Made by a program: the position numbers and the translations under genes. 64,000 bases of DNA from NCBI RefSeq assembly GCF_024223415.1, contig NZ_CP100503.1; one strand, 5' to 3'. This document shows positions 11,556-17,591 of this stretch, piece after piece. How positions within the stretch are numbered: the stretch's first letter is position 1; each line of letters starts with the position of its first letter. The stretch is from Escherichia coli (GTDB taxonomy: Bacteria; Pseudomonadota; Gammaproteobacteria; Enterobacterales; Enterobacteriaceae). The notes beneath the pieces are model-generated. The model was given only the letters and a program-made list of their open reading frames with translations, was not told the DNA's origin and did not search any database.

Positions 11556-14500
11556 CTATATTTTTCCGCCTACGCCTTTAAACTTCTCAATAAACGAGAC
11601 GATTTTCTGGAAAACTGCCTGTTTTTTCGTTTTATATTGCGGATTCAACGGACTAAGTTTTGGTAATGTTTCGTTTAATTCTGTGCCATTTTCGGTGGCG
11701 TATTCGCGTTTTAAAGACGTGCGAATATAGCGTTTTGCTGCTTCTTCATTGAGATTTTCTTCTTTTATCAATGCTTCTGCTTCACGTTGCTGTTCGCGTT
11801 GAGCAAATGTAAAGAATGCCTCAATGATACTGGCTTTGTCTGGTAAATCATCCAGGTTCGTTTGCTGAATAAAATCGACCACCAGGCCCTCTTTCGCCCG
11901 GTTTCCCAGGCTTGAACGAATTAAGCGTTTGACCTCTTCGATCATTTCGCCCTTGCCTTTATTTTGTCTGTTGTGTTCGAAAATCAGTCCAAGGATATAA
12001 TCCAGGTTTATTTCCTGAGACTTCAGCAAATCGACCTCAAAAACTACGTCATCCCAGTCAGTGGTTGATTTCTCTTTTTTCTCAGCTTCTTTCTCACGGC
12101 GCTGCCAGTCGCGAATATCGTTATAGGCAGAACGATAATCCTGAATCTTGCGATCAGCAGGGAGACGAATTGTTTGCAATTCAGCGAACTTTTCATCATC
12201 CACATAATGTTCTGCTTTGAATTTTTCTACCGCAACAGGATCGCTAAGATCGATTTGTTGCAGGGCTTTTAGCGTGGCAAATTCATCATAGTTTTGCAGG
12301 ATGTTCTCGGCACGCAGGTATTCGCCAAACAGTTTAACGAAGTCTTTCTTCTCTTTTTCACTTTCAATACTGGTAGGGTCAGGGAACCGTTGTTCCAGTT
12401 CTGAAACTACTGTCATGAAGCCGCGTTTAGCTTCACCAGTGGCAGCATCAGTAAAGCCTTCCATATACTCTGCATAACTCTTTTCTAAAACCACATTTTT
12501 GGTATTTTTGTCACCAAACAGCGTTATGGCATCAATGGTTGAGCGTTCCAGATCCCGGAACGTGACGATATTACCGAAGGTTTTAGTCGCGTCATAAATG
12601 CGGTTGGTGCGGGAGAATGCTTGCATCAGGCCGTGAAAACGCAAGTTTTTATCGACGAATAGCGTGTTCAATGTTGGAGCGTCGAATCCGGTTAAAAACA
12701 TCCCAACGACAATTAACAGATCGATATCCTGATTTTTAACCCGTTGGGCTAAATCACGATAGTAGTTCTGAAAACCGTTACTGTCGGTACTGAAGTTAGT
12801 TTTAAAATAGCTGTTATATTCACGAATTGCAGCGTCGAGAAACTCTTTAGCACTGCTGTCCATTGCGCTGGTATCAAAAGTTTCATCGGAAATTTCACCA
12901 ATAGCATTTTGTTCTTCATTAGCGGCAAAGGAGAAGATTGTCGCAACACGTAGTGGTTTATAGGTAGCAGATTTATTAGCGGCTTCCTCTTGTAACCGTT
13001 TAAACGTCGCGTAATAGGCTTTCGCGGCATCCACGCTGCTCACTGCCAGCATGGCATTAAAACCTTTGGAGCCAGGGAAAGTACGGTGGGTTTTCTGGCG
13101 GAAGTTATTCAGGATATATTGCGTAATTTCCTGAATACGCATGGGATGAAGGAACGCCTGCTGATTTTCAGCCGCACTCAGTTTTTTCTCGTCAGTTTCT
13201 GTCTCTAAAGACTTAAACTGTGGCCGCACATCGTTGTAGTCCACCTTGAATTTAAGCACTTTTTCATCACGAATCGCATCGGTAATTACATACGAATGCA
13301 ATTCACGACCAAATACGCTGGCGGTTGTTTCTGAGCCTAAGGCGTTTTCCGGGAAAATAGGGGTGCCGGTAAAACCAAACTGATAATAGCGTTTGAATTT
13401 CTTCTTCAGGTTTTTCTGCGCTTCTCCAAACTGGCTGCGGTGGCATTCATCAAATATAAACACCACTTGCTGATTATATACAGGCAGGTCGCTTTCTGCT
13501 TTCATCAGGTTATTGAGTTTCTGAATAGTAGTGACGATAATTTTGTTATCGTCCTTATCCAGATTTCGTTTAAGGCCTGCGGTATTTTCCGAGCCGTTGA
13601 CGCTGTCTGGCGAAAAACGCTGATATTCCTTCATGGTCTGGTAATCGAGGTCTTTCCTGTCGACCACAAAGAAGACTTTATCAATAAAGTCCAGCTCTGT
13701 TGCCAGACGCGCGGCTTTAAAGCTGGTGAGGGTTTTACCAGAACCGGTAGTGTGCCAGATATACCCACCGCTTTCCGGTTTTGACCAGTTCTTCGCTGTA
13801 AAGGAACTCTTAATTTTCCACAGAATGCGCTCGGTGGCGGCAATCTGGTACGGTCGCATCACCAGTAGCGTCTGACTACTGTCAAAAACGCTGTAGTTCA
13901 CCAGAACATTCAGCAGAGTATGTTTCTGGAAAAAGGTAGCGGTAAAGTCTTTGAGGTCTTTAATCAGCGTGTTGTCTGATTTCGCCCAATTCATGGTGAA
14001 GTCAAAACTGTTTTTATCGCGCTTTGTCGTGTTGGCAAAATAACGGGTATCGGTGCCGTTAGAAATGACAAACAGTTGCAGATACTTAAACAGGGAATTT
14101 TCGCTGTTAAAACTCTCTTTACTGTAACGATGTATCTGGTTGAAAGCCTCACGAATCGCCACCCCGCGTTTTTTTAGTTCGATTTGCACCAGCGGTAAAC
14201 CATTAACCAGGATCGTGACGTCATAACGGTTAGCATGAGAACCCGTCTGTTCAAACTGCTGGATAATCTGCACCTTATTGCGCATGAGATTCTTTTTATC
14301 TATCAAATAGATGTTCTCAAGACGCCCGTCATCAAAAATAAAGTCGCAAATATAGTCGATATGGATATTACGGGTCTTATCCAGAATGCCATCACTCGGG
14401 TTGTCCAGATACTGCTCCGTGAAACGCCGCCACTCGCTGTCATTAAATACCACACCATTGAGGCTCTGAAGCTGTTCCCGAACATTGGACAGCATCGCCA

Positions 14501-14672
14501 ACTGTGATTTTACCGAAATAAATTCATAGCCCTGATTCCGCAGGTCCTGAATCAGTTCCCGTTCCAGGTCCGATTCGCTCTGGTAGCTGTCGCCTGTTTG
14601 CTCAGCTTTGATGTACTTATCAAGGACGATAAAGTTATTGGATTCAGCAATGGTGTGTATCTGATGAGTCAT
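11556..14672 (-). CDS. hsdR: Type I restriction endonuclease subunit R (EcoR124-like, type IC)
   Basis: 1038 aa; Walker A TTGSGKT, DECH box, N-terminal nuclease region; matches my recollection of EcoR124 HsdR. Confidence 0.9.
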
Positions 14673-14793: not shown

Positions 14794-16032
14794 TTAATTA
14801 CTGACAGTTTCAGGTTTTGGGAAACTGAACAGTAAATCACGGTAGTATTCGTATTGTTTCTGGCGCAACTCGATTTCACGCGGAAGACCTTCGGTGATGG
14901 AGTTAGTCAGTGTGTCGAATTTGTCGAGTATTTCGACAATTCGTTGTTGTTCATTGATGTTAGGAACCGGAATTTTAAATGAAAATAATTTTTTACTGTC
15001 AATAGAAGCTACGGACCCTCCTGTCTTTTTCGCTGCTCGCAGAATATCACTCCCCCTAGACCCAATCATATGATAAATATATTTAACCAAGATGTTTTCA
15101 TGAGGAATGACTGCTTTCATATCTTGATTGAGCGTAGCAGGTACTTTTATTAATGCACTTGGTAATACTTTATCCAATATGCTTGAGCGAACAACGATTG
15201 CAATCGAGTTTGCTGGAATCAGTTTTGTTGACGATTGTAGAACAGCCTCCTCAGTTATATAGTCTTCCGAAGAGTCTACAAGTGTTCGGCCCATATCTTT
15301 CGGGGAAATCCATGGAATGCTTCCATTTTCCCAAAATTCAATTTTATTTTTTGATGGTGTCCCTCCCCCATACCATTTTCCGATCTCTCCCAAAGTCTTC
15401 CACTCAACCTCACCCTCTTTAAAACTCAACAACTGGTCGCGATAGTAATTGTACTGTTTTTTACGCATGTTAAGCTCAGCGGTAAGCTCAGCGGTAAGCT
15501 CAGCGGTAAGTGCAGTAAATTTGTCCAGAATCCGAACGATTTCAGACTGGATGGCAAGGGATTTTTCCGGATTATCCGGGCAAGGGATTGGAACTTCAAA
15601 CTTATCTGTATCAGGAGTTGCAATTTGTGGCATTTGCATTTTACCCCCAATTTTCTGGAAATATCCTTCATTTATTTTTAGGAAGTAATAAATATACTTT
15701 ATGCTTATCGCATCATTATTTGAGTGATATGACCACATCTCATTTTTGTGAGAGAATGGTTTATCGTAATACTCGAATTCGATAATACCTCTGGATTTAA
15801 CAATAATCGATGGCTCTCTATTAATATCTTTCTCTGGTATATCTTTAAAGTCAACAAAGGCTACTGTTTTCCCTCCTGCAAAAATTTTAAGCGGCGCATT
15901 ATCTTTGTGAAGAGCTTTCATCTGCCCAGCGGTTATTTTTGTGCCTTTAGTTCGTTTAAGCACTTTCCCTAGTGTTTTCCACTCAACCTTAACCCCATCC
16001 AGCAATTTTTCCAGATAACTCAACTCGCTCAT
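14794..16032 (-). CDS. hsdS: Type I R-M specificity subunit S
   Basis: 412 aa; two target-recognition domains separated by a central conserved region with [12 protein letters not shown] repeats; 4-bp overlap with hsdM. Confidence 0.85.
15472..15507 (-). repeat. Three perfect tandem 12-bp repeats (AAGCTCAGCGGT, encoding TAEL) in the hsdS central region
   Basis: Directly visible at 15472-15507. Confidence 0.95.
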
Positions 16033-17591
16033 TTCTGCACCTCGCAGCCTTCAATTTCAGCCACAATCGCATCAATATCTTTACGCAATTGGTCGATTTT
16101 GCTGACCGTGGTTTTCAGCTCTGCATTCAACTCAGCGATATCGATAATTTCGCGAGTATCTTTCGCTTCCACATAGCTGCTCACCGACAGGTTATAGTCA
16201 TTAGCTACAACGGTCTCAAACGCGACAGATTTTGCCAGATGAGCAACATCTTCCTTGCTGGTGAATACCTGCATAATTTGTTCGATATGGGCATCGGTCA
16301 GGATATTGTTGTTGGTCTCTTTTTTGAACAGTTCGCTGGCATCAATAAACTGAACGTTGGTATCCGTTTTATGTTTGGACAGAACCAGAATGTTTACGGC
16401 AATGGTGGTGCCAAAGAACAGGTTCGGTGCCAGTGAAATCACGGTTTCGACATAGTTATTGTCAACCAGATACTGACGGATTTTCTGCTCCGCGCCGCCA
16501 CGGTAAAAAATGCCCGGGAAGCAGACAATCGCAGCACGACCTTTGGCAGAAAGATAGTTCAGCGCATGTAATACAAACGCAAAGTCAGCTTTGGATTTGG
16601 GGGCCAGAACGCCAGCCGGGGCAAAACGCTCATCGTTAATCAGCGTCGGGTCATCGCTGCCAATCCATTTCACCGAATACGGCGGGTTAGAAACGATGGC
16701 ATCAAACGGTTTTTCATCTCTGAAGTGCGGTTCAGTCAGCGTATTGCCCAGCTTGATATCAAACTTGTCGTAGTTGATGTTGTGCAAAAACATGTTCATA
16801 CGTGCCAGGTTATAGGTCGTATGGTTGATTTCCTGTCCGAAAAAGCCTTCTTCAATGATATGGTTATCAAACTGCTTTTTAGCCTGCAACAACAGCGAAC
16901 CGGAACCTGCTGCCGGGTCGTAGATTTTGTTAACGTGGGTCTGCCCGTGCATAGCCAGTTGTGCAATCAGCTTAGAGACGTGCTGTGGTGTAAAGAACTC
17001 GCCGCCTGACTTACCGGCATTCGCGGCATAGTTAGAAATCAGAAACTCATAGGCATCGCCAAACAGGTCAATCTGATGTTCGTTAAAGTCGCCAAGCTTT
17101 AATCCTTCAACCCCTTTCAGAACCGCAGCCAGGCGGGCATTTTTATCCTTAACGGTGTTACCCAGGCGGTTACTGGTGGTATCGAAATCAGCAAACAAAC
17201 CTTTGATGTCTGCTTCTGAAGGATAACCGTAAGCAGAACTTTCGATAGCAACGAAGATGCTGTTTAAATCTGCATTCAGTCTGTCATTAGTATTTGCTTT
17301 CGCAGCTACGTTGCAGAAAAGCTGACTTGGGTAGATGAAGTAGCCTTTGGTTTTGATGGCATCGTCTTTAATGTCATCAGTAATTACGCTGTCATCCAGT
17401 TTCGCATAACAGATACTGTCATCACCGGCTTCAATATAGCTGGAAAAATTTTCGCTGATAAAACGGTAGAAAAGTGCGCCCAGAACGTATTGCTTAAAAT
17501 CCCATCCATCGACCGAACCCCTGACATCGTTAGCAATTTGCCAGATTTGACGATGAAGCTCTGCGCGTTGTTGAATACTTGTCATTTTCAT
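16029..17591 (-). CDS. hsdM: Type I R-M N6-adenine methyltransferase subunit M
   Basis: 520 aa; NPPY motif ([10 protein letters not shown]) and AdoMet-binding motif. Confidence 0.9.

Follow-up and report, generated by a model that had tools for sequence, protein, structure and literature searches.

Does a restriction-modification (R-M) system carried by a temperate phage change its DNA specificity in nature by gaining or losing a single short repeat in its specificity gene? The question is raised by the hsdM-hsdS-hsdR locus at positions 11556-17591 of a 64,000-nucleotide stretch of Escherichia coli DNA (assembly GCF_024223415.1, contig NZ_CP100503.1), the whole of which is called the window here. 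A sequence-only reading had recognized in it an EcoR124-type type I system on a phage-plasmid, with three perfect 12-bp repeats in the centre of hsdS, each encoding the tetrapeptide TAEL, and had described the locus as potentially phase-variable. We compared the locus with characterized systems and with its relatives in public assemblies, and we consider it very probable that it is a type IC cassette in a P1-like phage-plasmid, in which gain and loss of a TAEL unit switches the spacer specificity, and has done so repeatedly in nature.

The argument depends on the architecture of the specificity subunit, HsdS, and of its two target recognition domains (TRDs); residue positions are given in amino acids (aa).

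14794-16032, minus strand: hsdS, 412 aa, specificity subunit, matching Pfam Methylase_S in two stretches
15595-15975, minus strand: TRD1 (HsdS aa ~20-146), N-terminal, unlike the GAA-reading TRD of EcoR124
15397-15594, minus strand: central conserved (coiled-coil, D1) region, which holds the repeats and is the same as in EcoR124 HsdS except for repeat number
15472-15507, minus strand: three perfect 12-bp units, ACCGCTGAGCTT on the coding strand, encoding three TAEL (HsdS aa 176-187)
14962-15396, minus strand: TRD2 (HsdS aa ~213-357), matching the C-terminal TRD of EcoR124 (7bst_A)

The coordinates first given for the three repeats proved exact, by both Tandem Repeats Finder and codon register. 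The program reported an array at 15471-15510 with period 12, 3.3 copies, 100% match, and a score of 80. It is the only perfect tandem repeat with at least three copies and a period of 4-30 within the 64-kb window, where a tract of this kind would be expected about 2e-10 times by chance. The comparison with EcoR124 HsdS that the sequence-only reading had proposed gave an end-to-end match to the S chain 7bst_A (404 aa, two TAEL; E=4e-182). From about residue 147 to 412, covering the centre, TRD2, and the C-terminal region, the two proteins differ by one substitution (Q265 here, H there) and the extra TAEL. The alignment, near-perfect there, barely extends through TRD1 (aa ~20-146).

The rules by which this family reads DNA are established. 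The N-terminal TRD specifies the 5' half-site and the C-terminal TRD the 3' half-site; the C-terminal TRD of EcoR124 reads RTCG/[CGAY] (Table 2 of PMC3874165); two TAEL repeats give an N6 spacer (EcoR124I) and three an N7 spacer (EcoR124II); EcoDXXI and EcoPrrI have three repeats each; and engineered EcoR124/EcoDXXI hybrids followed both the TRD and the spacer rules (PMC3874165). With one TAEL unit deleted, EcoR124II restricted a different set of phages, and the repeat DNA of the window exactly matches the published primers that converted EcoR124II to EcoR124I (PMC10644984). The premise that repeat number sets the spacer was thus well founded. From these family rules, the recognition site of the window system is predicted to be X-N7-RTCG, in which X is set by TRD1, and a two-repeat twin should read X-N6-RTCG. 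Because TRD1 is unlike that of EcoR124, a 5' half-site other than GAA is expected, and the predicted site is therefore not GAA-N7-RTCG; a literature search for the half-site of this TRD1 found nothing.

Such a twin exists. The 408-aa allele P0001 equals the window HsdS at every residue, minus one TAEL. At the DNA level, eight loci of this type differ from the window by the 12-bp unit and at most one substitution over more than 5.2 kb, from hsdS through the hsdS-hsdR gap and hsdR to 759 bp farther on. The context is P1-like in seven of the eight places shown, and the eighth (L009) is P1-like on the hsdR side only; L009 excepted, the places shown for the window allele with either two or three repeats (n=2 and n=3) are flanked by pap/pmgS and phd-doc. 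An exact-sequence look-up in an assembly index, counted as raw blocks, extended the comparison to the EcoR124 allele and to the hsdS allele on plasmid pAMA1167-NDM-5 (NZ_CP024805.1), called here the pAMA1167-type allele.

Window allele: n=1, 0; n=2, 69 blocks; n=3, 18 contigs in 18 blocks; n=4, 0
EcoR124 allele (only n=2 and n=3 queried): n=2, 228 blocks; n=3, 11
pAMA1167-type allele: n=1, 55; n=2, 7338; n=3, 6289; n=4, 20 blocks

The repeat-number variants that the sequence-only reading had asked for are therefore present in public assemblies, and all three hsdS alleles tested are dimorphic, occurring with both two and three repeats. In the pAMA1167-type allele, n=1 and n=4 are both below 0.5%. 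Complete E. coli genomes, sampled systematically, showed the two states in nearly equal number, with 29 three-repeat and 28 two-repeat records among 60 drawn from the 1362 complete-genome records that matched the central region, the state being read from the span of each record matched by a 156-nt query. Three repeats are thus a common state of the family, found in about half of the E. coli records. Shorter junction queries of 76 and 64 nt had been tried for the same purpose and were replaced by the 156-nt query, since their counts at 80% coverage or more were not repeat-specific. We also dropped an earlier impression that the three-repeat form is rare (0 of 239 listed protein homologues), as the protein collection behind it appears to lack proteins with three TAEL. 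The 412-aa window HsdS and the 427-aa WP_001617890.1 were both reported absent from that collection, and were found on 18 contigs and in 6289 blocks, respectively. Neither of these two proteins carried a precomputed Pfam match, and absence from the protein-homology collection is not a sign of rarity for repeat-containing proteins.

Could the difference between two and three repeats be an artefact of sequencing or assembling a short tandem repeat? Most of the contigs found are indeed short-read draft assemblies. However, a tract of 28-40 bp is far below the read length and the usual assembly k-mers, both states occur at about 1:1 in RefSeq complete genomes and in thousands of independent assemblies, and EcoR124I and EcoR124II are experimentally verified natural variants. 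We regard an artefact as hardly credible.

The more searching question is whether the two states interconvert or are old alleles that have been passed around. We aligned 13-15 P1-like loci together with the window, obtaining 18,345 ungapped columns, and counted single-nucleotide polymorphisms (SNPs) between loci with different repeat numbers. The two-repeat locus L007 and the three-repeat locus L022 have no SNPs over the 18,345 columns; L003 (n=2) differs by 1 SNP from L026 and from L027 (both n=3); and L010 (n=2) differs from L025 (n=3) by 16 SNPs. The three lineages holding these pairs are 87-211 SNPs from one another. Parsimony on a neighbour-joining tree counts about five repeat changes, at least three of which are unambiguous. 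Tract length hence differs recurrently between near-identical backbones (0-1 SNP in two lineages, 16 in the third), which is one of the features of a contingency locus. These comparisons show that changes between two and three repeats recur at a pace comparable to or faster than one point substitution per ~18 kb, and the counts show that lengths other than two and three are strongly disfavoured. To the extent that the spacer follows repeat number as in the family, the data support recurrent specificity switching, and the original description of the locus as potentially phase-variable now has behind it an identical allele with two and three repeats on near-identical P1-like backbones in several lineages.

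An alternative is that three repeats represent a fixed allele, the dimorphism being old, having arisen once or a few times and spread by recombination, while the tract itself is stable. P1-like backbones are clearly mosaic: L008 and L023, for instance, are close over the central 12 kb and carry 198 SNPs over 18 kb, and three repeats are common and stable in the family, as in EcoDXXI and EcoPrrI. The window itself is a case in point. Its positions 10673-16802 are identical to other n=3 loci, and of the 49 differences from L026 within 9000-19000, 30 fall in 16803-17764, which takes in the first half of hsdM and the adjoining upstream DNA. This clustering next to an identical stretch indicates a recombination breakpoint inside hsdM near 16803. 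Nevertheless, a fixed allele fits poorly with two separate lineages in which two- and three-repeat loci differ by only 0-1 SNP across 18.3 kb, and several imports of a bare 12-bp unit without any flanking marker are less parsimonious than local gain or loss. Moreover, every tested allele is dimorphic, and n=1 and n=4 turn up at low frequency in the abundant pAMA1167-type allele, as stepwise slippage predicts. We consider the fixed-allele explanation unlikely.

Several points nonetheless weigh against repeated switching by local gain and loss of units, or limit how far it can be taken. The identity of 10673-16802 to other n=3 loci means that the window is no independent switching event. The raw block counts may include clonal oversampling. 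Recurrence was gauged against SNPs rather than generations, so that classical high-frequency phase variation lies beyond these data; the laboratory switch between EcoR124I and EcoR124II is itself a rare event and is not known as classical high-frequency phase variation. Finally, gene conversion of a short tract from a second type IC hsdS in the same cell would look like slippage, and the comparative data fit slippage, unequal crossing-over, and short-tract conversion alike and do not separate them. One metagenome contig carrying the window TRD1 (L017) has the same synonymous variant, GCA, in all three of its units, which is what copying between units would produce.

In viral (IMG/VR) and metagenome contigs (L012-L017), the window TRD1 is combined with four different TRD2s, the repeats numbering two or three; on sequence comparison, type IC specificity domains are thus shuffled as modules in nature. 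Scans with a pattern combining TRD1 and a variable gap gave two matches in viral contigs, both with n=2, four in metagenome contigs, three with n=2 and one with n=3 and another TRD2, and none in genome contigs; these are too few loci for frequencies of repeat states.

Taken together, recurrent switching on P1-like backbones might be part of something more general. The TAEL tract could act as a bounded two-state switch between N6 and N7 specificities across E. coli mobile elements, because all alleles examined are dimorphic, the commonest at about 1:1, n=1 and n=4 are rare, and switches recur on identical backbones. We put this generalization forward tentatively, at slightly under an even chance.

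A switch in specificity would matter only if the system works, and the genes are intact by sequence. All three hsd open reading frames (ORFs) lie on the minus strand, with limits in the ORF map exactly as the sequence-only reading gave them.

16029-17591, minus strand: hsdM, 520 aa, N6-adenine DNA methyltransferase subunit, identified by Pfam, TIGR00497, and identity to EcoR124 HsdM
14673-14793, minus strand: hsdS-hsdR intergenic region, 121 bp, with a promoter-like TTAACA-18-TATTTT from 14766 to 14737 (consensus scan only)
11556-14672, minus strand: hsdR, 1038 aa, restriction/translocase subunit, identified by Pfam and its score against EcoR124 HsdR

HsdM matches Pfam N6_Mtase (4e-121) and HsdM_N and the NCBIfam hsdM equivalog TIGR00497 (649 bits), shares 518 of 520 residues with EcoR124 HsdM (PDB 7bst_D), and retains the intact motifs DPAAGSG (motif I) at residue 225 and NPPY at residue 302. 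The hsdM stop and the hsdS start share four nucleotides (ATGA). HsdR scores 2278 bits against EcoR124 HsdR (PDB 2w00_A), compared with a self score of 2309 bits. Its Pfam domains are HSDR_N, SWI2_SNF2/ResIII, a T1R_D3-like domain, and EcoR124_C. Its motifs include GSGKT at 310, DECH at 408, and D151/E165/K167, which we take to be the nuclease residues known from the EcoR124 HsdR structure. The promoter-like site between hsdS and hsdR is a candidate separate hsdR promoter, and the 121-bp gap sequence is identical in 14 of 14 related P1-like loci; upstream of hsdM, no sigma-70-like promoter passed the consensus scan. The order hsdM-hsdS-hsdR with hsdR set apart by an intergenic gap containing a putative promoter, the close similarity of HsdM and HsdR to EcoR124-family subunits (type I families being delimited by how alike their subunits are in sequence and by complementation), and an HsdS with two variable TRDs, a conserved TAEL-bearing centre, and a conserved C-terminal region (aligned with 7bst_A and 10 homologues) are the features of type IC. 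Judging from these genes, the locus is an intact type IC R-M system of the EcoR124 family, in agreement with its first assignment as EcoR124-type, and subunit exchange or complementation with EcoR124 or EcoDXXI is very likely because HsdM and HsdR are near-identical to family members.

The locus could instead be a silent or decaying passenger, restriction-inactive and perhaps retained as a methylase or as an addiction-like module beside phd-doc, so that repeat number would be without phenotype. The activity of the window allele is presumed from its sequence, and decay does occur in the lineage, as phage vB_EcoM-673R5 has hsdM and hsdR annotated in fragments. Against this, the three ORFs are full-length with intact catalytic motifs, and hsdR is 100% identical in DNA across 14 other loci. 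Furthermore, the window allele was seen at no length other than two or three repeats, and n=1 and n=4 stay below 0.5% in the abundant one; this pattern suggests that spacer length, and with it function, is under selection. A passenger without function is, in our view, very unlikely.

The cassette is set in a phage-plasmid: the window aligns collinearly with phage P1 and is 98% identical to it. Against the P1 genome AF234172, BLAST aligned window 1010-11480 with P1 74000-84482 (98.5%) and window 17692-22928 with P1 87970-93206 (97.7%); the cassette lies between them, in place of the P1 genes pmgT, pmgU, pmgV, upfM-O, hot, lxr, and humD.

11481-17691, no strand: hsd cassette, 6.2 kb, in place of P1 84483-87969 (BLAST against AF234172)
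11303-11319, plus strand: C1 operator OpmgT (Op88), ATTGCTCTAATAAATCT, 1 mismatch to the operator consensus, at a position annotated in P1
17768-18369, plus strand: phd-doc addiction module, PHROG Phd-like antitoxin and Doc-like toxin, collinear with P1

On the hsdR side, the cassette is flanked by pmgR-pmgS-pap and bordered by Op88, which adjoins the pap stop codon. The hsdM side carries phd-doc, pdcB, and lpa, with phd (17768-17989) and doc (17989-18369) at the border and transcribed divergently from the cassette. The hsd genes thus sit between a C1-controlled region and phd-doc, as had been proposed. Further C1 operators lie at 9162-9178 and 9211-9227, on either side of pmgR, and C1-operator-like sites in the window number 15, compared with 0.3 expected. 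We took as the mark of a Punavirus collinearity with P1 that includes the C1 repressor and its operators, cre, phd-doc, lpa, and pacAB; the window has P1 collinearity over ~15.7 kb (97.7-98.5%), C1 operators, and PHROG and Pfam matches. By this comparison, the host element is a P1-like (Punavirus) phage-plasmid, and the identity of the sequences flanking the cassette to P1 bears out the phage-plasmid setting first suggested.

Neither the system nor its position is new. The annotation of AF234172 records that P1 84263-84482 matches sequence downstream of the EcoDXXI hsd locus, that P1 84399-84482 matches sequence downstream of hsdR on R124/3, and that P1 87969-88647 matches sequence upstream of the EcoDXXI hsd locus. 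As the P1 record notes the same junctions for EcoDXXI and R124/3, the system, its mechanism, and its location were already known. Relatives of this system occur on more than 1100 PLSDB plasmids and in 1313 of 5426 complete E. coli genomes.

The closest known system is EcoR124II (R124/3; GAA-N7-RTCG), which shares with the window the gene order, three TAEL, the 12-bp unit, TRD2, and the C-terminal region, whereas its TRD1 is unrelated in sequence and it resides on the conjugative plasmid R124 rather than on a P1-like phage-plasmid. EcoR124I (GAA-N6-RTCG), with two TAEL and that other TRD1, stands to EcoR124II as the 408-aa twin stands to the 412-aa window HsdS, with one unit fewer and otherwise unchanged. 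EcoDXXI (TCA-N7-RTTC) and EcoPrrI (CCA-N7-RTGC) have three TAEL and N7 like the window but different TRDs. The EcoDXXI hsd locus has P1 pap-side and phd-doc flanks with junctions as in the window (P1 GenBank record), and EcoPrrI additionally has prrC, of which there is none in the window ORF map. Among phage-plasmids, the P7-like mcr-1 plasmid pMCR_SCKP-LL83 (PMC5786510) has doc, hsdM-hsdS-hsdR, and PNKP/pap-pmgS arranged as in the window, and phage vB_EcoM-673R5 carries the cassette at the same position; both have another hsdS allele. On pAMA1167-NDM-5, the cassette forms part of an hsd-phd-doc-pdcA-pdcB' module. Phase-variable type I systems that use simple sequence repeats or hsdS inversion (PMC7383803) resemble the window system in that a repeat-mediated change in hsdS alters the specificity of both methylation and restriction while the system is kept. 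They differ in that the window system has an in-frame 12-bp unit in only 2-3 copies, which changes spacer length rather than turning the system on or off or shuffling TRDs.

These comparisons are consistent with a simple mechanism. The M2S complex would methylate, and R2M2S restrict, a bipartite site, with TRD1 reading the 5' half-site X and TRD2 reading RTCG. The TAEL-repeat helix between the TRDs would set the gap, three repeats giving N7. Gain or loss of one 12-bp unit, presumably by slipped-strand mispairing or unequal crossing-over, would then produce the other specificity. Such a change would leave chromosomal sites unmodified. For type IC systems, establishment in a naive cell and restriction alleviation are attributed to assembly control that operates by way of an R1M2S intermediate unable to cleave (PMC12707154), and we suggest that the same control might protect the cell after a spacer switch.

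Some further features of the window and its relatives are recorded here. At 11403-11477 on the plus strand, downstream of Op88 and of a terminator-like hairpin at 11352-11374, a small ORF with a Shine-Dalgarno sequence (GGAG) encodes a hydrophobic peptide of 24 aa (MNTAFKIIMAGLFSITFGGIVAHG). The ORF stops 3 nt short of the P1/cassette junction and lies within the stretch that, according to the P1 record, also follows hsdR on R124/3. In NZ_CP024805.1 (locus L018, 149-10476), the hsdMSR cassette with its P1-derived phd-doc-pdcA-truncated-pdcB fragment adjoins IS1 and a SMODS nucleotidyltransferase/S-4TM effector pair, which has the look of a cyclic-oligonucleotide-based antiphage signalling system (CBASS); the whole resembles a small defence island. 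Elsewhere in the window, at 35974-41400 on the minus strand, a contiguous 178-aa ORF comes immediately before a 1629-aa SNF2/helicase ORF and overlaps a TnpB gene at 41279; the two ORFs may be a darB-like (anti-type-I-restriction) gene disrupted by the insertion sequence (IS). That TnpB gene (41279-42511, plus strand) and another at 28201-29433 (minus strand) each encode a 410-aa IS200/IS605-family protein (OrfB_IS605 and Cas12f1-like TNB), and another TnpB copy lies between lpa and pacA in some related P1-like lineages and not in others. A 900-aa ORF (60426-63128, plus strand) combines a C5-cytosine methylase (aa 533-747) and a D12 N6-adenine methylase (aa 834-888) with matches to Hint_2 (aa 77-126) and LAGLIDADG_3 (aa 298-361), and could be a P1 Dmt-like methyltransferase containing an intein with a homing endonuclease.

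The laboratory switch between EcoR124I and EcoR124II is textbook knowledge, and the window HsdS allele, combining its distinct TRD1, three TAEL, and what appears to be an RTCG-reading TRD2, is already present, unnamed, in public assemblies. A paper documenting the population-level pattern of two and three TAEL was not found in the literature searched, and the population-level evidence for recurrent, bounded switching between the two states is, in this respect, modestly new. The window system and its twins, predicted to read X-N7-RTCG and X-N6-RTCG and one 12-bp unit apart, constitute a natural test pair. If the tentative two-state reading is correct, a switch on the phage-plasmid would re-key both the defence of the lysogen and the methylation imprint of the virions it releases, amounting to bet-hedging at the level of the temperate phage population. 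The counts in public assemblies suggest that type IC spacer switching is not a laboratory curiosity but is ongoing on plasmids and phage-plasmids that also spread resistance genes (mcr-1 and NDM-5 carriers, for instance), where it would again and again shift the restriction barriers that separate E. coli lineages.

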